Below are positions 3,172-57,035 of a stretch of 64,000 nt of DNA, piece after piece (within the stretch, counting starts at the first letter, position 1; each line of letters begins with the position of its first letter). The stretch spans positions 3,429-67,428 of the forward strand of contig QIJH01000218.1 of the NCBI GenBank assembly GCA_003232725.1. Reading direction: 5' to 3'. A program made the position numbers and the translations under genes. This DNA comes from Chromatiaceae bacterium. Lineage in GTDB: Bacteria; Pseudomonadota; Gammaproteobacteria; SZUA-140. Under the pieces are notes generated by a model. It searched no databases. It saw nothing but the letters and a program-made list of their open reading frames with translations, and was not told the DNA's origin.

Positions 3172-3248
<77 letters not shown>

Positions 3249-3486
3249 TACGAATCAATAAGTTACACACCGTACCCGCTATCCAACAAAATTCATGGAA
3301 GCATTCCCATGAAATAAGCACGCTCCTTTCTTTTCTCGACATTAAAGATCAATCCTTGTGTTTAGCACACTAAACACTAAATATGTCATGTATGGTGGTT
3401 TAGCAATTTGCTATACACAACAAAATTTGAACATGATTCAACCCACACAACATCACTATGACCATTAAATACAAAGGGAGGCACGC

Positions 3487-3718
3487 TTGGAACCCTACCA
3501 ACCCCAAACACTCCCCCTTAAAAACCTGGATTACGCCAAACTAATCACCCTGGTTGGTGAGGCCAACGCTGCCTTAGCTGAATACAACGGGTTGTTACAA
3601 TCCATGGTAAATCCTGCTGTGATGCTATCTCCCCTTATCAACCAGGAAGCCGTGTTTTACTTGTATCGAGGGAACTCAGACCATCGTTGAAACAGTGCAG
3701 TGCACCGCCTGCCTATAG
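3487..3718 (+). pseudogene. Fic/DOC family protein remnant (Fic_N domain only, frameshifted and truncated)
   Basis: The 3487-3690 ORF (TTG start) encodes ...YQPQTLPLKNLDYAKLITLVGEANAALAEYNGLLQSMVNPAVMLSPLINQEAV, which has the Fic N-terminal-domain pattern. The expected continuation (IEGTQTIVETVQ) is in another frame (3665-3718) and then stops. No HPFx[DE]GNGR core follows. Confidence 0.5.
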
Positions 3719-3744
3719 CGTATAACAATATAAACAGTGATGAC

Positions 3745-3774
3745 GCTGGCAACAATCGCATCGCCGTTGCCAGC
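3745..3774 (-). terminator. Hairpin (9-bp stem gctggcaac/gttgccagc) downstream of the 3855-4130 minus-strand gene
   Basis: Perfect 9-bp inverted repeat with 12-nt loop. A U-rich tract follows on the minus strand. Confidence 0.35.
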
Positions 3775-3854
3775 GACTCCAACAAGAATCCCTGATTAAT
3801 GATTAGCAAACAAAAGATCAGCTAGTTACACCATCAACTCAAGTGATAGCGACC

Positions 3855-4130
3855 CTATCCCACCGCATCGCCTTCACCAGGTTTCTGAAGTTCCTGTGAC
3901 TCCTCTTCAATACGCCGCACCCCAAAGATCACCTTCGGCGGTATTCCCATTTCGAGATCGACACCATTAACACGATAGTTTGAACCGCGCTGTTTTAGGA
4001 TATCGTTCACCTTCTCCTGCTTTTTCATCGCCGCCATAATCGTATCCGCAATCAGCTCATCGCTGCTGAACTCGGTCGTTTTATCCATCACCTTGACGGA
4101 AAGTTCTTTTGCCTTGTCGAAGAATGCCAT
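3855..4130 (-). CDS. hypothetical protein (91 aa)
   Basis: ORF with an AGGGG RBS 6-7 nt upstream of ATG. Begins MAFFDKAKELSVKVMDKTTEF.... I recognise no family. Confidence 0.4.
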   Translation of the reverse strand: MAFFDKAKELSVKVMDKTTEFSSDELIADTIMAAMKKQEKVNDILKQRGSNYRVNGVDLEMGIPPKVIFGVRRIEEESQELQKPGEGDAVG

Positions 4131-4555
4131 CGCCTACCCCTATTAGTGATTACCGTTACCACAGCCGCCCGGTGAGCCCGCTGCTGAGGCGAGGGTCTTG
4201 TTGGCATCCTCAAAAAAGTCCTGCCAGCCACTGGCCATCGTATTTCCGATAAATAGCATCCACCGGTAACGCTGCGAGCTGTGGCAACACAACTTGCACA
4301 GACTGGTCCGCTTGCAACAGGCCGCATTCGTTACACTCCAGTTATAGAGATGGGTGTCACCTGAATTACTAACGATAACGCCTCCTCATCAAGACAAAAC
4401 GCACAGCCCATTCTCATGAGTTAAATAAAAACACAGCAAAAACAAACAATTTAATGTATAATTTGTCGCCTTGCTGGAATCATCCCGCAAGTTCGTGCGC
4501 CCTCTTAGACTCATATTGAGGTGCACGACCCTAGAACACTACAGGTATTTTACAG

Positions 4556-12815: not shown

Positions 12816-13691
12816 TCACTGCCGAATTTGATTTCCCTCATTCTGATCATCGCGCCGAAAGAGATTATGATCCGCTAAGTACTCAAGAAAGCCACCACCA
12901 TCCCAATAAGTATACACCCCACCACTGCCACCCTGGTCTGGGCCAGTAGTATACGTATATTGCCCACCACTGACCGTTTGCTTAACCAGAGACTTATCGC
13001 TAAAGAAAGTCGGAATGGCATTGTTATCATAATCACCCTGGTCGCCAAAATTATCTGTCAGCAACTCAAATTGGTTTGAAACAATCCCAGGGGTATCTAT
13101 CGTGCCATAATCGATCATGCTCATGTCGATCTGGAAATCCATTCTCACATCAGCATTGGTGATCAGCTGGCTAATTAATGGCTTAAACTGAAGGCTATCC
13201 TTCAAAAACCACTGAGTAATTTCCTCATCCTTGATCATAGTTCTCATCACCACTCGCCTCGGGTTACCTGAACCACTTCCGTTAGCTAATCCACCAAGAC
13301 TATTACTGGCCGACCTGGGGAATGGGTCATAGAATCGACTCGCCTGATAACAGCAACCACTGGCATCGATGTAAACCTCTTGAGCAAAATCGCTATCTAA
13401 ATCACCAATAATTGAATGGTAATAGCGAATACCATCAATATAAACCACTTCCTGCAGGAACGGGGTTGGATCCGTGTATCGAGCATTACTACCACCCAAG
13501 GCACAACGCAATTCAGTCCCCCCGCGATTACAATCGATCGTTAAAACAGGATCCTCAGCCTCATTGACAAAACCAAGCTGAAAACCAGATTGTTCCGCCC
13601 AAGAGATGCTCACACACCAGATTCCAGCTAAAGCTGAAAACATGCCTATAAAGGCTTTATTTAACATTACACCCACCCTTAAACACTTCAA
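12816..13691 (-). CDS. secreted hypothetical protein (signal peptide; Gly/Tyr/Asp-rich C-terminus)
   Basis: Hydrophobic N-terminus ...FIGMFSALAGIWCVSISWA-EQ. No recognised domain. Flanked upstream by about 250 bp of AT-rich DNA. Confidence 0.55.
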   Translation of the reverse strand: MKCLRVGVMLNKAFIGMFSALAGIWCVSISWAEQSGFQLGFVNEAEDPVLTIDCNRGGTELRCALGGSNARYTDPTPFLQEVVYIDGIRYYHSIIGDLDSDFAQEVYIDASGCCYQASRFYDPFPRSASNSLGGLANGSGSGNPRRVVMRTMIKDEEITQWFLKDSLQFKPLISQLITNADVRMDFQIDMSMIDYGTIDTPGIVSNQFELLTDNFGDQGDYDNNAIPTFFSDKSLVKQTVSGGQYTYTTGPDQGGSGGVYTYWDGGGFLEYLADHNLFRRDDQNEGNQIRQ

Positions 13692-18413: not shown

Positions 18414-19643
18414 TTGATACTTCGTCTCTTTCAGGGCATGAGATCACAGCCAGCAAGCACTCCCCTAGGCGTTGCGAGCATCATACTCGTAACGCTTTTG
18501 CTGCTAACTGCTAGCCCCTCTCTGTTTGCCAATGCCAATGAACAGTCGAAAGAAGCAAAACTGCTACATTTAAAAAAACAGATCAGTGACGTTCGTACAA
18601 CACTGACAAAATCCACCAGCGAAAAGAACCGGCTACAGCACAAATTGCAAAAAAGTGAAACGGCCATTGGCAACATCAGCCGATCCCTGGCAAACCTCGC
18701 CAAACAACTGAAACAACAAAAACGTGACCTACGCAATCGCCAACAAGAGAAAAAACAAAAATCACGTGAATTAGCACAGCAACAACAACTGCTGGCACAG
18801 CAGATCCGCGCCAGCTACGCGATGGGCAATCAGGGCTACGCCAAACTATTCCTCAATCAGGAAGACCCCGCCGCGATTGGCCGTACCCTCATTTATTACG
18901 ACTACCTGAACCAGTCTCGCACACACAATATCAAGACGATCGATCAACGCATCACAGCGCTCTCACGCATCGAAACCGATATTCAACACAAGCAGCAGAA
19001 AATTACAGCGGCTCAACAACAGCGCAAAAAAGAGAAAGGTGCGCTAGAGAAACAACAGCGCTCACGAAAAACGATCCTTTCCAGCATACAGAAAGATATC
19101 AAGAATCAATCACAGCGGCTGGTTCAGCTCGAACAGGCGCGCAAAGACCTCCAGCGGTTATTAAAATCACTGAGTGAAGCCCTTGCAGACATTCCACCCG
19201 ATGTCGGCAATATCAAACAGTTCAGCCAGCTCAAAGGAAAACTCCTGCGCCCAACCAAAGGCAAGGTCAACAATCGCTTTGGCAAACGACGCACAGGTGG
19301 TGGTGGCATCAAATGGCAAGGAATCACTATCAAGGCTAAAACAGGCACCCAGGTCAATGCCGTTCATCACGGCAGAGTTGCCTTTTCCGACTGGCTACGT
19401 GGTTTTGGCTTACTGGTGATTTTAGACCATGGCGACGGCTACATGAGCCTTTATGGACACAATGAAAGCCTATATAAAACTGTCGGCGAATGGGTAGATC
19501 GTGGCGAGATCATTGCTACCGTTGGCGAGAGTGGCGGCCAAAGTAACAAATCCGCAAGAATGGCAAGCCGCAAAACCCTAGACCATGGCTGGCACGTCAA
19601 TAGCCACATATTAGCAACGACGGAAATATGGCGAAAACAGTAG
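18414..19643 (+). CDS. envC: murein hydrolase activator EnvC-like (coiled coil + degenerate LytM/M23 domain); 3' end appears frameshifted
   Basis: Signal peptide, long Q/K/E-rich coiled coil, M23-like C-terminal domain (GITIKAKTGTQVNAVHHGRVAFSDWLRGFGLLVILDHGDGYMSLYGHNESL). The conserved final motif (QIRKNGKPQNPRPWLARQ*) is read in another frame at 19547-19603. Confidence 0.75.
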   Translation: MILRLFQGMRSQPASTPLGVASIILVTLLLLTASPSLFANANEQSKEAKLLHLKKQISDVRTTLTKSTSEKNRLQHKLQKSETAIGNISRSLANLAKQLKQQKRDLRNRQQEKKQKSRELAQQQQLLAQQIRASYAMGNQGYAKLFLNQEDPAAIGRTLIYYDYLNQSRTHNIKTIDQRITALSRIETDIQHKQQKITAAQQQRKKEKGALEKQQRSRKTILSSIQKDIKNQSQRLVQLEQARKDLQRLLKSLSEALADIPPDVGNIKQFSQLKGKLLRPTKGKVNNRFGKRRTGGGGIKWQGITIKAKTGTQVNAVHHGRVAFSDWLRGFGLLVILDHGDGYMSLYGHNESLYKTVGEWVDRGEIIATVGESGGQSNKSARMASRKTLDHGWHVNSHILATTEIWRKQ

Positions 19644-22106: not shown

Positions 22107-22191
22107 ACAGGAGTAACAATGGCAACAGTACTCGACCCATCGGCGCAAGATTGAAACAGAACGTGTGCGTTAGTGAACAGGCCCGCTTGTT

Positions 22192-23838
22192 TTAGTCGCG
22201 ACGTTCGTCACGCGGCCATGAAAACAGCAGCACAATAATCCCCATGCCTCCCAGACTCCAAGAGACCATCGAAGCACTACCTAATCCTAATAGTATAGCC
22301 GCACTGACAATCAATGCACTGCCCACAATTGCGGCATACAGACGTCGGTTTGAATCCCGCAACGTGTGCTCAATTTTACGTAGCTCTTGCGACTGCCACT
22401 CAATCTTCAATTCACCATCGCGCGCCTGCTGTAAAACATCATGCAGCAACACCGGCATTTCAGGTAGCCGTTCCAACCACAATGGCGCATTGCGTTTCAT
22501 CGAACTGACAAAGGCACGACCACCAATATTTTCATCCATCCAACGTTCCAGAAATGGTTTTGCCGTCTGCCACAAGTCTAACTCAGGGTAAAGCTGCCGC
22601 CCCAACCCTTCAATGTTCAACAGCGTCTTTTGCAACAATACCAACTGCGGCTGCACTTCCATATTAAAACGGCGCGCGGTTTGAAACAGGCGTAACAACA
22701 GTCGTCCAAATGAGATATCTTTCAGTGGCCGCTCAAAAATCGGTTCACACACACTGCGAATCGCTGATTCAAACTCATCAACTCGCGTCCCTTTCGGCAC
22801 CCATTCAGATTGTACATGAAGCTCTGCAACACGACGATAATCACGATTAAAAAAGGCCAGAAAGTTCTCTGCAAGGTAATGCTGATCATCCGGGCTCAAC
22901 GTCCCCATGATGCCAAAGTCGATCGCAATGTACTGCCCTTCCGCAGAAACAAAAATATTCCCAGGATGCATATCCGCATGAAAAAAGTTATGTTTAAAGA
23001 CTTGAGTAAAAAAGATCTCCACGCCCGTTTCAGACAATTTTTTAAGATCAACACCTTGTCGACGCAGCTCATCGATATCGCTAATCGGCGTACCAAAGAT
23101 ACGCTCCATCACCATCACATTACGGCGCGTTTGCGGCCAATGTATTTCAGGCACATAAAGCAGATCACTGCCTTCAAAATTACGCCGAAGCTGTGAAGCG
23201 CTCGCCGCCTCTTTCATCAGATCTAGTTCGTCATAGATGGTTTTTTCATATTCTGCCACCACTTCAAGCGGACGCAGGCGTCGTCCCTCTGACCAGTAAC
23301 GTTCAACCATCTCGGCCATAATATAAAGCAGACCAAGGTCACGCCTGATGGTTTTTTTAATTCCGGGACGCACTACTTTAACAATCACTTCAGTGCCATC
23401 AAGCAGTGTTGCCACATGTACCTGTGCGATCGATGCAGAGGCTAGCGGGGTTTCATCAAACGATAAAAAAACTTTATTCAGTGGCAGACCATAAGCCGCT
23501 TCGATAATACCGCGTGCTTCACTACCGGGAAATGGCGGCACGTTATCCTGCAGTTTTGCCAGTTCATCCGCAATATCATCCGGCAACAGATCTTTACGTG
23601 TTGAGAGGATCTGACCAAGCTTTACAAAAATCGGGCCCAGATCTTCCAACGTGCGACGCATACGCACGGGATGTGGTTCACGTACACGACTGCGGCCAAA
23701 CCAGTTCCATGGCAACAGATACAACAAAAAGCGGAACGGGCGAAACAGATGCATCTCCAGCACCACCTCGTCCAGCCCATGTTTAACTAAAATACGATTG
23801 ATATGCAGCAGTCGGAACAGCTGGCTGGGTTTAATCAT
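22192..23838 (-). CDS. ubiB: ubiquinone biosynthesis regulatory protein kinase UbiB
   Basis: ABC1/UbiB kinase-like domain ([32 protein letters not shown]...ASASIAQVH...[10 protein letters not shown]) and two C-terminal TM helices. Start taken at the second Met, adjacent to the ubiJ stop. Confidence 0.93.
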
Positions 23839-24470
23839 CACTCAACAGCGCCTCGCTGTGTTAACAGGCGTTGCACGCGCGCTTCCATCCGGTCCACATC
23901 ACTTCGCAGCGTATCAACCGCTTCCAGAAATGGCCCGACCTCTTCATAATGTGGTAACAAGCGACTCTCCTCTTGCAGGTATTCACTCACATCCTGTTCT
24001 ACCGTACTGCGTGTCTGTGTCGTCCAGTCGGCCGCGCCGCTCACCACGTTACCAATTTTATGCCCAACCACATCACCCACCAACTTTGCTATCTGCTCTT
24101 CCCAATCAAGGTCAAGGTTATTCATGATATCGCGGATATGCTGTCCGGTTTCTGTATCACCCTCAATCTCAACATCCCCCGAAAACAGCGCCTGCTGTTG
24201 ATCGCCACCCAATCCCATGCGCATCATCGACAGTGGTGCACCACGTAACCACACATCCACCTCACCATCAAATTCCGCGCGCAACTGCAGGTCAACGCTA
24301 TCCGGCAGCAGATAAAACTTAAGGTTCAAACCTAATAACTCAATGCCAACCACCTTGCCAGTGAGTGCGCGCACCCGCTGCAGTGCATCAGGATCAAACT
24401 GAAGGCAATGATTGATAGCCGCTTCAAATGCCGACAGCGATACTGTTTTAATCGATGATGTGATATCCAT
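23838..24470 (-). CDS. ubiJ: ubiquinone biosynthesis accessory factor UbiJ (SCP2 domain)
   Basis: 210 aa. N-terminal SCP2-like region ([37 protein letters not shown]). Position between ubiE and ubiB. Confidence 0.8.
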
Positions 24471-24506
24471 ATGACTAAACTCCAGATCAATAGTGGATCA
24501 ACAACA

Positions 24507-25249
24507 TCAGAATTTATAACCTTTATGCAACGCATAAACTCACAACGCTCAAAGCCTGCCGCTTGCATCATCCCCTTCAACGTCTCTTGATCAGGGTGCA
24601 TGCGAATTGATTCAGCAAGATAACGATAGCTATCTTCATCGTTGGCAATCAACTTTCCCATCAACGGTAATAATTTAAACGAGTAGGTATCATAAACCGG
24701 CTTAAGCGCGTCCATCGGCTTTGAGAATTCCAGCACCATCAAACGCCCACCGGGTTTCAACACACGGTAGATCGATGCCAGTGCTGCATCTTTATCAGTC
24801 ACGTTACGCAAGCCAAATGAGATACTGGCAAAATTAAAATAATTATCGGGAAAGGGCAGCGCCTCGGCATTCGCCTGCACATATTCGATGTTTCCAACAA
24901 TGCCACGATCGGTCAAACGCTCACGCCCCACCTTTAACATATTGGGATTGATGTCTGATGCCACCACCTTACCTTCTGACCCCACCATCTTTGAAAAACG
25001 TGCCGCAAGATCACCGGTACCCGATGCGAGATCCAACACCTTATGGCCCAGGCGAACACCACTGGTATCGAGCGCGACCTTTTTCCAGATGCGATGCACA
25101 CCCATCGACATCACATCGTTCATGATGTCGTAGTTTTTGGCAACCGAATCAAATACACCCGCAACACGTTTCACTTTCTCTTTTACATCGACCTGCTCAT
25201 ACCCAAAATGAGTCGTCTCATCTGAGGTGGTGGATTGTTTATTGGTCAT
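24507..25249 (-). CDS. ubiE: ubiquinone/menaquinone C-methyltransferase UbiE (3' end frameshifted in this sequence)
   Basis: SAM-MTase motifs ([15 protein letters not shown]; [20 protein letters not shown]; [13 protein letters not shown]). After ...MQAAGFE the continuous frame reads unrelated sequence to 24332, overlapping ubiJ by 138 nt. The conserved terminus [10 protein letters not shown] is in another frame, ending at 24507-24509. The coordinates given assume the conserved stop. Confidence 0.8.
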
Positions 25250-25609
25250 CCGTCACCTTCTGGCACAATACGTTCATGCCCGGCATCAATAAGACGCTGT
25301 AGATATGCCTGCCACATCGCTTCTTGATTCTGCCCCACACGGTAAAGGAACTCCCACGAAAAAAGCCCCGTGTTATGGCCATCATCAAAGTGAAGTTTCA
25401 CCGCATAAGCGCCAATCGGCTCAATCTCTGTAATATTGACCGCCTCTTTACCCACCTGCAGTGTCTCTTGCCCCACACCATGCCCCTGTACCTCAGAATT
25501 CACACGGCAAACGAAACTCTGCGCCGTTATTAAAGATCACTTCCAGCACCCGTGATTTTTGGTGCAGGCGAATATCGGTCGGGCGATGTTTTTTTGTTTG
25601 TACAGTCAT
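25246..25609 (-). pseudogene. DUF971 family protein, split between two frames
   Basis: N-terminal 38 codons (MTVQTKKHRPTDIRLHQKSRVLEVIFNNGAEFRLPCEF*, 25493-25609, AAGAG RBS) and C-terminal 85 codons (GTG at 25503: NSEVQGHGVGQETLQVGKEAVNITEIEPIGAYAVKLHFDDGHNTGLFSWEFLYRVG...). Together they make a normal-length DUF971, but in different frames. About six codons (LRVYSP-like) seem to be missing at the junction. Confidence 0.55.
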
Positions 25610-45364: not shown

Positions 45365-45862
45365 TCAATCCTTGTTTCTAACCGTCTCTACGCCAAAAAA
45401 TAGCACCATCTGATCGCCAATCGCTGGCAATGCAAAGTTCATATCAAAATCTGAACGCTTGAATTTAGCAGTGACATCAAAGCCACACACGTACTTCTCT
45501 TTTTTTAGGGTCCAGCGGGTGGACACCACAATGAATACTTTCCACTTCCAGCACAGCATGCTTTGTCACACCCAGGATGGTTAAATCACCCTAGGAGCCA
45601 TCTTGCCTCCTTTATGAAACTCAACGGTCTTCGCTTGATAGGTGATCGCCGGAAACTCCATCGCATTCAGAAAGTCGATTGAACGCAGGTGGTCGTCACG
45701 TTTCCCCATGCAGGTATAAACGGACGCCGCATCGATCACAATATCAATCGAGCCTATGCTCGCCTTTCGATCCATCGTGCCGCACAATGCGCTCGCGCCT
45801 ATTGACGCCCTATTCCCCTTATGAAGGCGGAACAGGTTAAAAATAGACCGCTTACTCTGCAT
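45365..45862 (-). pseudogene. yceI: YceI-family (polyisoprenoid-binding) protein pseudogene: N-terminally truncated, at least two frameshifts
   Basis: Three frame pieces: ...IDAASVYTCMGKRDDHLRSIDFLNAMEFPAITYQAKTVEF; GDLTILGVTKHAVLEVESIHCGVHPLDPKK; KEKYVCGFDVTAKFKRSDFDMNFALPAIGDQMVLFFGVETV. Joined, they reproduce the YceI fold order. One shift falls in an A7/T7 run (45497-45505). The N-terminal signal-peptide region is absent. Confidence 0.65.
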
Positions 45863-46327
45863 CTAACGATAATATTTTTGCCACTCGTCTTTCGTGATTT
45901 TATACAGGACATGCTCTCTAAGGGGGTTACCCTCTGGAATAATAGGATGTTCAAAATTATCACCGGTGTCTGTCATTCCCAGGCGCGTCATCACTTGCCA
46001 TGATTTTTTATTGGTGACAGATGCAAACGAATAGAGCTTATCGAGCCCTAGCTCAGTGAAGGCAAACCTCATCGCCTCTTTAGCTGCCTCTGAGGCATAG
46101 CCACGCCCCCAGAATTCACTTCTCAAACGTCAACCAATTTCGACACAGCGCGATACTGGCAAGTCGTAGGTAGGCTTGTGCAGCCCGACAAAGCCGATGA
46201 ACTCTCCATCCACAATGGTTTCAGCAGCCCAGAGCCCCCACGATCTCTCTGTTATAAGCCGCTTTATTTTTTCAGCCATGGCATCACTCTCTTCACGGCT
46301 CAAAGTATTGGGGTAATACTTCATCAC
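45863..46327 (-). pseudogene. GNAT N-acetyltransferase (RimJ/RimL-like) interrupted by a single in-frame TGA at a conserved Trp position
   Basis: The 65-codon piece (..SWGLWAAETIVDGEFIGFVGLHKPT...CVEIG) and 87-codon piece (RLRSEFWGRGYASEAAKEAMRFAFTELGLDKLY...) are contiguous in the same frame, separated only by TGA where the EIGW.L motif expects Trp (TGG). Confidence 0.7.
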
Positions 46328-46407
46328 CTGTAACTACTCAGCGAGTAGTCAAAATTAACAGTGACTGCTCAGCTAACCCATCAACTCCCAGCATCTCATA
46401 AAAAATT

Positions 46408-46479
46408 TAGTAACTATTCAGTTCACTCCTGAAATCTGAATAGTTATATACCCATCTTCCATTATGCTGAATAGTTACA
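46408..46479. repeat. MITE-like inverted-repeat element, short copy (72 bp)
   Basis: Same 28-bp 5' end and 17-bp 3' end as 21017-21186. The interior is reduced to a second partial TIR copy (ctgaatagttata). Confidence 0.6.
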
Positions 46480-46911
46480 AAATTTATTATGCGCTACCCC
46501 GACAACATACTCTGTTTTATCTTCCAAGCACCCCTGTCAACTCGTAAATAATTTAAAGAGGAATGGACAGCGACGCTCCCGGGTTTCGCTTGCGCTCAAC
46601 CCAGGCTACACATATCAAATACCGTCATTCCGGCCAATAAGAATGGTGGGGGGGTGCCGGGATCAGGGTAAGCTGATCTCTGGTCCCAATCAATTCCAGC
46701 ACAAAACTTGATGAGCACTCGCAATAACACACCAATAAAAACTTAAACCTACTTGTTTTGAATGTAGCTGAGTGCTAGTTTAACGAAAAGGCCATCTATT
46801 TTTGAGCGGCGTAAAAATGCCCTAAATATACAATGTATGGCTGTCATATATCACAACCACACACGGCTGCATATCAACCGCTAATTCACTTAGCGATAGA
46901 GGAGTATCAAA

Positions 46912-46983
46912 TTGGATCTATTAATAGCAATCATCATCGTTTGGATTGGCTGGCTAATATTCCGACGCAAAGAAAAAAAGTAG
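46912..46983 (+). other. candidate small hydrophobic peptide (23 aa, TTG start)
   Basis: GAGGAG SD 7 nt upstream of TTG. Encodes (M)DLLIAIIIVWIGWLIFRRKEKK*, one TM helix plus basic tail, reminiscent of type I toxin / small membrane peptides. Unverified. Confidence 0.25.
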
Positions 46984-47045
46984 GGTATAGCAGGTTAAAT
47001 TTCACCATCAATACAAGTCGTATACCCAAGTAAATCTCTACCTGC

Positions 47046-47267
47046 CTGGATCAACTCATCAAGCAACATTTTAGCCGAACTAAACATGAGACTGGCATTG
47101 CGGAACTAATGCTACAAGGGTAGCCAGCCAAACGCATCGCAATAAAAACCAATGTCAGCCACGAGACGGTTAGATGGTATATAAAAAAGATCTGTGCAAA
47201 AAACCACTCGAATTCTCAAGCTGAATTTATCGTAAAACACTCCGCGGACTCGCTTCAAGCGCCTTAA
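47046..47267 (+). pseudogene. LuxR/GerE-type HTH remnant with in-frame TAG
   Basis: Reads LDQLIKQHFSRTKHETGIAELMLQG*PAKRIAIKTNVSHETVRWYIKKICAKNHSNSQAEFIVKH. This is the canonical LuxR C-terminal HTH (LT.RE.EI...G.S.KEIA..L.IS..TV..H...I..KL.V.....A), with a stop at 47121 and no upstream regulatory/receiver domain. Confidence 0.55.
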
Positions 47268-47361
47268 CTACAACCACATAGAGATTCACTACAAAGATAA
47301 ATCCAGGAAATACTTAACCCTTAGGAGGTACGAAGTATATAAAGCCAGTCATCACAGGGAA

Positions 47362-54181: not shown

Positions 54182-54837
54182 CGTCGTGCTATTTCAAATC
54201 CAAAACTTACAATAAAGAACAGCTCAATTTACTACTTTTTCGGTGAAATTTCCAGTCAACCGCTCATATCCCGGCAGCCCGCCACTTAAATCAAACCTAA
54301 CCATTACGACTGTGAATTTGGCGGTTCAGAGCAATCTTACCTGCACTAAAACAGTAAAAACTTATACTGCTGAACAAGCAAGCATCAAACCAGCTAAATA
54401 AATCTGTTTAAAATCAACAAAAACAAATAATACGAGGCCTTTGCACCAGCAGTGATTTTGTTCTCGGGCACCAACAGTAGGCGCTTTAGGCGAGGCAAAA
54501 GCGCACGGAATGAGGGAGTTTATCGCTATAAATGACCGATTGAGACCGCTTTTAACACCGCCAAAGGGCAAAAGAACAATCGTGCAAAGATCTCAATACG
54601 AAGAATTCAAATCGCACTAGAATAGCGCGAAAAAAGTGACGGCGACTCTTTACTTGGTGTAATAGAGAATTACAAATAGCAAAAATCGTCCTACTATAGC
54701 CCACCTAAATGCGTTGATAGCGACTATCCACTCACAACCAAATTAGCCACATCTCTAAAATTCAGTTACCAGTAACACCTATCAACCCCATTGGGCTGTA
54801 GAACGACAACTGTCACTACCGGCAAACAACACCCATA

Positions 54838-55023
54838 TTAACGGCGTTTTCGACGATCCTGCTCTTCTTTCACATATACCAGCGACTCATCTTCTGGTGC
54901 CACATCTTCCGACCACTGTTTACTAGTGTCCGTTGACGATTTCAAATGAACAGCAACCGCTGCTCCAATAACACCGCCCAATGTGAAAGCCACCAATATC
55001 GCTTCTATCATCATGCCCATCAT
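54838..55023 (-). CDS. small membrane protein (61 aa)
   Basis: GGAGGA RBS, then MMGMMIEAILVAFTLGGVIGAAVAVHL (one TM helix, glycine-zipper-like) and acidic/basic tail. Family unknown. Confidence 0.4.
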   Translation of the reverse strand: MMGMMIEAILVAFTLGGVIGAAVAVHLKSSTDTSKQWSEDVAPEDESLVYVKEEQDRRKRR

Positions 55024-55326
55024 ATGCGTATCCTCCAATATTCAGGTTTACATCCTTGCCAAGCCATCCAACATCCTTTTGGAAATGGCCATTTCGAGAT
55101 CCTTCACTATTATTTAGCGGCTCGGATATGCCATTCCCTTAATTCAGTTAAAGGCATCGATCATGCCAATATCGAAAAAACACTAGAAACAATCAGGTAA
55201 AAGAAGGTAATAGACTGTATTGATAGAAAAAATTAACGGCGATCATGAAACATATTTTGCCCACATAAAATCGCGTCAGTACAAAAAAATGACGTTAGCT
55301 GTCTGTATCCAGCAGATCCAGCGCTA

Positions 55327-56115
55327 TTATTCTGCCAATTTGGCCTTCTGCCACATCGCCTCAAGCGCCGCCAAAGCGGCATCCTGAGGCAAAACCCCCA
55401 ATTCAACACACTGCGCCTCAACCAGACCAAAACGCCGCTCAAAACGCCGGTTCGCTTCACGCAGCGCGCACTCCGGGTCAATCGATGCGTGACGTGCAAG
55501 ATTACTCACCGCCTGCAACAGATCACCCACCTCATGTCGCATACGCAGGTCACCCTGATTTTGCTCAAGCACTTCCCGCACCTCGTCCAGCTCTTCCTGC
55601 ACCTTATCCAGTACCTGGTCAATTTCAGGCCAGTCAAAACCGACATGGGCCGCACGCTTTTGCAGCTTCACTGCGCGTGTTAACGCGGGCAGCGTCACCG
55701 CAACGCCACTCAAAGCACCCTGATGGCTGGCAGCGACACCTTTTTTTCGCCGCTCATCCGCCTTAATCTTCTCCCACGTAGCACCATGATCACTCGTAGC
55801 AGCGCGCGCATCATCAAACACATGCGGATGACGGCGAATTAATTTCTCCGCAATGGTTTCAACCACCCGCGAAAAATCAAAGAGCCCTTCCTCTTTAGCA
55901 ATCTGGGCATAAAACACTACCTGAAACAGCAGATCACCCAGCTCATCACACAGATCATCCATGTCACCACGCTCGACCGCATCCACTACTTCATAAGCCT
56001 CTTCAATCGTACAGGGCGCGATTGAACGATAGTCCTGCGCCAGATCCCACGGGCAGCCACTCTCAGGGGCACGCAATTGAGCCATCACTTCAAGCAGTTT
56101 TTTCATTTCATTCAT
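55327..56115 (-). CDS. mazG: nucleoside triphosphate pyrophosphohydrolase MazG
   Basis: Two MazG-like EExxE modules (...CPWDLAQDYRSIAPCTIEEAYEVVDAVE...DELGDLLFQVVFYAQ; ...VQEELDEVREVLEQ...HEVGDLLQAV). Confidence 0.9.
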   Translation of the reverse strand: MNEMKKLLEVMAQLRAPESGCPWDLAQDYRSIAPCTIEEAYEVVDAVERGDMDDLCDELGDLLFQVVFYAQIAKEEGLFDFSRVVETIAEKLIRRHPHVFDDARAATSDHGATWEKIKADERRKKGVAASHQGALSGVAVTLPALTRAVKLQKRAAHVGFDWPEIDQVLDKVQEELDEVREVLEQNQGDLRMRHEVGDLLQAVSNLARHASIDPECALREANRRFERRFGLVEAQCVELGVLPQDAALAALEAMWQKAKLAE

Positions 56116-56379: not shown

Positions 56380-57035
56380 TTACACAAAACAACACTCATC
56401 ACTCCTCGCTATTTTCCTGCCACTTAAGCAGAGCCGCTATCTTTTTTTCGACACAACCTTGCCTTATCCAATCCCCTCACAACGTTGAGACGCTCCCTTC
56501 CAGTCGCTCTTAGCAAAAGCTATCTCAGGCTAACAGGGATAGGACAAACACTGCACAGGACAAATCTCATAAATGCCACAGCGCATATATTCCTCTTACT
56601 TCCGCTAGAAAAACACATGTTTCATCATCACTTACAGCTACCACTCAATCTTCACCAAGTCGATCGAAAAAGATAACATCGCTTAAACCAGGCACAAGAC
56701 AGACCAAGAAAATGACCGGTTTTTCTCTCTCTTCGCTCGATACGTAACATAATAACCACCTATAAGGTAGCGCAATATCCCCCACATTCAGTACACTCAA
56801 AACGTGACGGCGCCTTTAAATATAGAGGGAGTTTGGTTTCATCGTTGAGTCGTTTCACCATGAATGATAATTTATTCGAAATTAATAGCCTTAATCTTAC
56901 TTTAAACGACACCGTAACAAACCGTTGCGCTTTATTAGACACGTTGCTATTCTGCCTTCATTGATATAACACGATACACGATTTTGTTTAACTGCATAGT
57001 TTAACGGCACACTTATAAAAACTGAGGAGACAAGC

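Follow-up and report, generated by a model that had tools for sequence, protein, structure and literature searches.

A clean 22-nt frameshifting deletion near the 3' end of ubiE, with similar deletions in DUF971 and envC: a candidate sequence error or a recent lesion

In the 64-kb stretch of DNA analysed here (hereafter, the window), the reading frame of ubiE does not close where the genes of its homologues close but runs on into the following gene, ubiJ. This raises the question of whether the gene has been truly broken or whether the deposited sequence is in error. The initial annotation had pointed out that the conserved UbiE terminus lies in a frame other than that of the open reading frame (ORF) and that the contiguous frame extends 138 nt into ubiJ. 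Both statements were borne out, the first by translation of the two minus-strand frames and the second by the coordinates, as the ORF occupies 24332..25249 and the ATG of ubiJ lies at 24470. The features of the ubiE region are as follows.

24332..25249, minus strand: ubiE ORF as written, 305 aa; the read-through end is absent from homologues.
24533..25249, minus strand: the part of ubiE in the native frame, codons 1-239, ending in ...GFERCEFM; 91% identity to P0001, residues 1-240.
24532..24534, minus strand: ubiE deletion junction, 22 nt missing, from the gap listing and the multiple alignment against L001, L002, L081, L083, and L084.
24507..24533, minus strand: retained native C-terminal codons ALHKGYKF and the stop TGA, by translation; protein-identical to the ends of P0001-P0009.
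24332..24532, minus strand: out-of-frame read-through tail, 66 codons and a stop, by translation; it overlaps the first ~138 nt of ubiJ.
23838..24470, minus strand: ubiJ (SCP2 domain), intact, with the 210 aa that the relatives also have; 86% identity to L081, a weak match to the UbiJ model, and an SCP2 Pfam domain in relatives.
22192..23841, minus strand: ubiB, intact, 549 aa; 772.7 bits with NF003404 against a cut-off of 667, and 89% identity to L081.

By sequence, motif, and context the gene is ubiE, yet it lacks the C-terminal feature of the family. The product scored 395 bits with the UbiE equivalog model NF001240, above the cut-off of 378 (the intact homologue P0001 gave 422.5), and the match spanned profile positions 4-236 of 251, stopping short of the C-terminal end. 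The gene resembles the UbiE/MenG family (E. coli UbiE; yeast Coq5, PDB 4OBW/4OBX; NF001240, PF01209) in residues 1-239, in the SAM motif, and in its operon downstream of hslVU; it differs in that the last 15 profile positions are missing in frame and a 66-residue out-of-frame tail stands in their place. The glycine-rich SAM-binding motif of the D-x-G-x-G-x-G type is kept, and its residues L72, D73, A75, G77, T78, G79, and D80 are invariant in alignment A2. The ubiE-ubiJ-ubiB context is present in the window, and the whole hslV-hslU-DUF971-ubiE-ubiJ-ubiB operon is syntenic with that of the relatives, as is the divergent yibQ-ctpA-envC-gpmI block. The ATG of ubiE overlaps the stop codon of DUF971 (ATGA), and the same overlap is found in the relatives.

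When one genome per species was scanned, two MAGs of marine and vent origin (L001 and L002) proved to carry the closest UbiE genes, with a protein identity of 87-89%. The nine nearest proteins in a search of 5.8 billion proteins had 86-91% identity and a length of 254-257 aa, and all of them carried the canonical end starting with GFE(R/C)C(E/D). In the same search the ubiE tail was covered by no database hit, and query coverage ended at 78%. The shift is thus not a matter of chance, because the nine nearest proteins share the canonical end and none has the tail of the window. The relatives came from vent, crustal-fluid, and marsh metagenomes, and even the nearest known ones diverge from the window by ~17% or more at the nucleotide level. 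Look-ups of exact products (the 305-aa ubiE ORF, UbiJ, and HslU) gave no match in the protein, contig, and metagenome collections, and a degenerate pattern specific to the ubiE junction had 0 matches in metagenome contigs. A lineage-specific C-terminus, with close relatives sharing the same sequence and frame, had been allowed for in the initial annotation. It was rejected: the tail lies outside every hit, the nine nearest proteins end canonically, and the canonical end was found in every relative checked. The annotation's own reading, a real lesion or a sequencing or assembly error, gained support, as no relative or database protein has this frame or tail.

At the nucleotide level, the window was aligned with L081, L083, and L084, which are the best relatives, and with L001 and L002. 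The alignment placed the junction at 24533/24534, ambiguous by one G, and showed a single clean 22-nt gap in the window gene against all five relatives (78-83% nucleotide identity); the gene contains no other indel or stop. The frame-shifting deficit, first put at roughly 22 nt, is therefore exactly 22 nt against every relative aligned. The relatives read GAGTTTAT[GAATATGAGTGGYGGYATYGTN]GCGYTRCAYAARGG at the junction, where the bracketed middle block is the segment absent from the window, and in the window GAGTTTAT is joined directly to GCGTTGCATAAAGG. The absent bases correspond to the codons NMSGGIV plus one base. The codons for ALHKGYKF stand one base out of frame with the ubiE ORF and end in a TGA at 24509-24507, and the frame that carries this conserved terminus is closed by a TGA immediately upstream. 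In a tblastn comparison, residues 246-255 of P0001 matched the window in a frame different from that of the ubiE core. A deletion near the end of ubiE had thus been recognised correctly, but its placement right after GFE was six codons too early, because close relatives also read ERCEFM and the sequence is native through residue 239. Of the terminus proposed at first, ALHKGYKF and its stop hold, whereas the preceding “VY” is an out-of-frame coincidence of GAG TTT ATG. The conserved stop at 24507 leaves a spacer of 36 nt before ubiJ, a length that had been called sensible and that agrees with the 25-40 nt of the relatives. The tail of the ORF is made up of this spacer and ubiJ, read in another frame.

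The product has lost conserved residues. N241, G245, V247, A248, H250, and G252 are invariant among 34 intact homologues, and G244, I246, L249, and K254 are nearly so; N241, G245, and V247 were lost with the deleted segment, and A248, H250, and G252 through the frameshift; the four nearly invariant residues are likewise gone. In alignment with yeast Coq5 (PDB 4OBW), the lost segment falls at the extreme C-terminal end. AlphaFold2 placed terminal strands at 236-242 and 247-253 of the intact relative P0001 (pLDDT 84-96); for the 305-aa product of the window, it gave a confident core up to 231, coil at 232-241, and a tail with pLDDT 33-60. These models place the loss in the terminal beta-hairpin (beta6-beta7) of a class I SAM methyltransferase, a UbiE hairpin conserved from bacteria to yeast: its turn is gone, and so is the beginning of its last strand. 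Because this hairpin and its six invariant residues are gone, the UbiE product as written is very probably defective, judging from sequence and predicted structure, and it is very unlikely that anything functional is left in ubiE as written. A tblastn search within the 64-kb window found no second ubiE-like sequence, and a pattern search of the window for a displaced copy of the missing 22 nt, with up to 3 mismatches allowed, found none; the suggestion that the segment had moved elsewhere or that a second ubiE lay in the window was rejected on these grounds.

The same kind of defect had been reported for two other genes of the window, and the alignments confirmed it in both.

18414..19643, plus strand: envC-like gene for an M23 peptidase that lacks 16 nt at 19547/19548, from alignment against all relatives.
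25246..25609, minus strand: DUF971 (GBBH-like_N), split by a 23-nt deletion at 25496/25497, from alignment against all relatives.

In envC, the deletion lies near the 3' end and leaves the native C-terminus IRKNGKPQNPRPWLARQ with its stop (19550-19603) out of frame; the Pfam M23 model matches only at positions 3-80 of 96. DUF971, which lies directly upstream of ubiE and is translationally coupled to it through the ATGA overlap, is a single 128-aa gene in the relatives. In the window, its N-terminal 38 codons (25609-25496) run into a TGA at 25495-25493, and the C-terminal remainder of 85 codons lies in the ORF 25246-25503, which matches Pfam PF06155 only at positions 35-85 of 85. The three deletions (16, 22, and 23 nt in envC, ubiE, and DUF971) all fall within 6 kb, at about 19.5-25.5 kb, and among them there are no 1-2-nt indels and no stop-creating substitutions. 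For three deletions to fall in 6 kb of the ~45 kb of comparable sequence, P is about 0.05. The three junctions contain no Ns and no k-mer-length repeats, their microhomology does not exceed 3 nt, no tandem duplications or duplicated contig ends were present near them, and no motif shared by the three was found. A common hairpin or quasi-palindrome mechanism was unsupported, since two of the three sites lack significant folding: single-stranded DNA folding gave a z value of -3.0 for the ubiE site of an intact relative and of -0.2 and -1.0 for the other two sites, and the ubiE deletion does not excise the hairpin cleanly. The literature yielded nothing useful on a link between DUF971 and ubiquinone.

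Comparison of about 40 kb elsewhere in the window revealed no clean deletions of this kind in conserved genes. The segment 1-9.8 kb has 81-89% nucleotide identity to L169 and no indel inside a gene; the coding indels at 39.2-45.3 kb, compared with L165 and L168, are only compensating or in-frame; and a protein-level comparison of 47.9-54.2 kb with 80 miaB loci showed no frame switches. Most of the other window genes checked matched their Pfam models essentially over the full length. The remaining damaged genes (yceI, a GNAT fragment, and a Fic_N fragment) bear damage of another sort; yceI, with indels of +1 and -4, is the only clear natural pseudogene of the window.

The dN/dS values against L081 were 0.047 for ubiE, 0.088 for DUF971, and 0.065 for envC, and those of six intact neighbours were 0.03-0.19. 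On the window's own branch, the broken genes gave about 0.095 and the intact ones about 0.065, both being rough values with saturated dS. At columns that are otherwise invariant, the UbiE of the window has 4 private substitutions and the intact relatives have 0-5, and the eight stranded C-terminal codons of ubiE still encode the consensus. The frame of ubiE is disrupted relative to all orthologues, and the gene does not show the marks of relaxed selection (raised dN/dS, private substitutions, secondary lesions). Strong purifying selection thus acted on the three genes throughout practically the entire divergence; therefore, the lesions are either not real or confined to the final few percent of the branch. 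In all nine genes dN is higher on the window branch than on that of L081, and as dS scales along, this simply reflects a longer branch. Genome-wide relaxed selection was rejected on the same scaling, with a branch dN/dS of about 0.065 as against about 0.08 for L081.

We slightly favour an error of assembly or sequence processing over a deletion that is genuine and recent, and give such an error in the deposited ubiE a probability of about 0.5. Assembly or later processing would have dropped short segments in a local stretch at about 19.5-25.5 kb, possibly where small coverage gaps were closed or abutted without filler, or possibly, if coverage was low there, through chimeric products of amplification. 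This would account for the clean losses of 16 nt in envC, 22 nt in ubiE, and 23 nt in DUF971, and the organism would then have a normal 254-aa UbiE. An error is favoured because the three deletions, of nearly one size, cluster within 6 kb, because a characteristic length suits a technical process better than the natural indel spectrum, and because the broken genes show no decay in dN/dS, private substitutions, or the stranded codons, which still follow the consensus. Ubiquinone and menaquinone synthesis are known to depend on UbiE as their single C-methyltransferase, and a hit in this sole shared enzyme while ubiJ and ubiB are intact argues in the same direction. It is also unlikely that the sequence represents a viable wild-type allele, because the lost segment is structurally indispensable.

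Local assembly errors of draft genomes and MAGs (“long indels,” abutted contig ends) resemble the present case in that short losses are clustered, have similar lengths, and leave no evolutionary footprint. Against an error in the deposited sequence, the recognisable signatures of such joins, that is, an N run, a flanking or k-mer-length repeat, or a duplicated contig end, are absent from the window junctions. Clean 20-nt deletions are rarely made by standard short-read assemblers, and 1-nt frameshifts of the sort that noisy long-read or 454 assemblies typically contain are not seen in the rest of the window. In addition, two of the three lesions lie in one operon (DUF971-ubiE), which fits relaxed selection after a first hit. 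Genuine gene remnants (yceI, GNAT, and Fic) and a missing DJ-1/PfpI gene also speak against an error, as they indicate that real gene loss occurs in this lineage.

The latter points bear on a genuine and very recent deletion, a serious contender to which we give somewhat less than an even chance. The ubiE gene would then be a fresh pseudogene or a severe hypomorph, with envC and DUF971 likewise hit. Replication slippage or end-joining repair with 1-3 nt microhomology is a possible route, and a possible setting is a bottlenecked, host-associated, or enrichment population, a minority strain in the assembly, or a polyploid cell with complementing copies. The clean junctions, whose microhomology is 1-3 nt and which bear no mark of assembly, are what such events would leave, and the window does hold other true remnants. 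The yceI gene (45365-45862) is a natural pseudogene with +1 and -4 indels and without its 5' end, while L166 and L167 have an intact gene of 193 aa; a C-terminal fragment of a GNAT acetyltransferase follows it at 45866-46129. A Fic_N fragment at 3469-3687 matches its profile at positions 2-37 of 82. Only 85 nt separate the stops of ubiB and yibQ (22107-22191), without the DJ-1/PfpI gene of 182 aa that L081, L083, and L084 carry at this place; either the window has lost this gene or the relatives have acquired it. Moreover, DUF971 and ubiE are adjacent and coupled, so that one hit could relax selection on the other.

A genuine deletion nevertheless requires three independent hits in genes with dN/dS of 0.05-0.09, all in the last few percent of the branch, all of 16-23 nt without small indels, and all within 6 kb of a window in which most of the other genes checked match Pfam essentially end to end. 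Loss of UbiE should abolish the respiratory quinones, and the organism looks like a free-living marine gammaproteobacterium of the sulfur-oxidiser type; ubiJ and ubiB stay perfect. The frameshifted pseudogenes of bacteria under relaxed selection, such as Mycobacterium leprae and Sodalis glossinidius, offer a likeness in the recognisable gene, in the deletion that is not a multiple of three, and in the disrupted neighbours and remnants in the window. Such pseudogenes carry 1-nt indels in excess. The ubiE of the window differs from them in the narrow sizes of the lesions and in having neither raised dN/dS nor secondary lesions. It is improbable that the three deletions of ~20 nt are real and stem from one unusual recent process, either end-joining-type repair that resected a characteristic length at each of a local cluster of breaks or persistence through polyploid complementation, which would leave a dead ubiE in a natural consensus genome.

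A functional lineage-specific variant was also considered, in which the 305-aa protein works, a new tail segment (e.g., CIKVIN) replaces the lost strand, and the overlap with ubiJ is tolerated or regulatory. The frame does stay open for 66 more codons, the core 1-231 is confidently predicted, and the score of 395 bits still passes the UbiE equivalog cut-off of 378. Against it, no hit reaches the tail, with coverage ending at 78% of the query; the tail is merely ubiJ and spacer in another frame; six invariant C-terminal residues are gone; and AlphaFold2 predicts coil at 232-241 and a tail with pLDDT 33-60. The stranded ALHKGYKF and its stop are perfectly preserved, and the change is therefore too recent for an evolved feature, so that this variant is most unlikely. 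Restoration of the terminus by a programmed -1 ribosomal frameshift at GAG UUU AUG/CG is effectively refuted: a -1 shift after AUG does reach the conserved terminus, a small hairpin (TTTATG/CATAAA) is present at the site, and two overlapping frames together encode the conserved ends as in dnaX and IS element transposases, but the junction reads G AGU UUA UGC G without an X XXY YYZ slippery heptamer, the hairpin sits on the site rather than downstream as a stimulator and is weak (-5.2 kcal/mol, z -1.5), the arrangement is not conserved, since relatives encode the end in a single frame, and the product would still lack the seven conserved residues NMSGGIV, including the invariant N241, G245, and V247.

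The change in ubiE is of a familiar type, a deletion that shifts the frame and makes the gene a candidate pseudogene or an assembly error, and it is no new kind of element; the trio of deletions of near-equal size is its sole mildly curious aspect. In the record, ubiE, DUF971, and envC should be flagged as frameshifted and the contig given an annotation or quality flag, and these genes are no basis for inferring the absence of ubiquinone or menaquinone until the lesions are confirmed. If the deletions are an artefact of the deposited sequence, the stretch at 19.5-25.5 kb is locally unreliable, and the rest of the genome may contain comparable errors. Real deletions would mean that the organism has just lost the methylation step common to both respiratory quinones, which would be drastic for a respiring gammaproteobacterium resembling the sulfur oxidisers. 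The loss of ubiE would then need explaining, although pseudogenisation is still an ordinary class of event.

Several other features of the window were recorded. The yceI and GNAT remnants belong to a stretch of about 2 kb without a long ORF (45365-47360), and its last ~1.2 kb has no Pfam or Rfam match. Two further stretches, 54193-55327 (~1.1 kb) and 56380-57000 (~0.6 kb), contain short ORFs only and have no Pfam and no Rfam match. On the minus strand at 12816-13691, a 291-aa ORF beside a MurU-like nucleotidyltransferase had no match in Pfam at E<=1e-4; this is a position at which a kinase-like partner of the AmgK type might be expected. In the stretch 3172-4535, a tRNA-Met gene (3172-3248) is followed by the Fic_N fragment and small unassigned ORFs, and the equivalent region of L169 holds a related 90-aa ORF and then genes for LPP20-type lipoproteins. 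The stretch may be the remnant of an element inserted beside the tRNA. An apparent truncation of dnaG in L169 and L170 relative to L171 and L172 was discarded, as it is only a gene-calling difference in DNA that is 100% identical. Among the UbiE homologues, P0010, encoded on a 14.3-kb JGI metagenome contig, has 351 aa and a partly duplicated C-terminal half whose origin is another ubiE-like sequence (...AGFDRVSVAFGQLNMTHKDQ...). Its appearance is that of an assembly chimera in public metagenome data.
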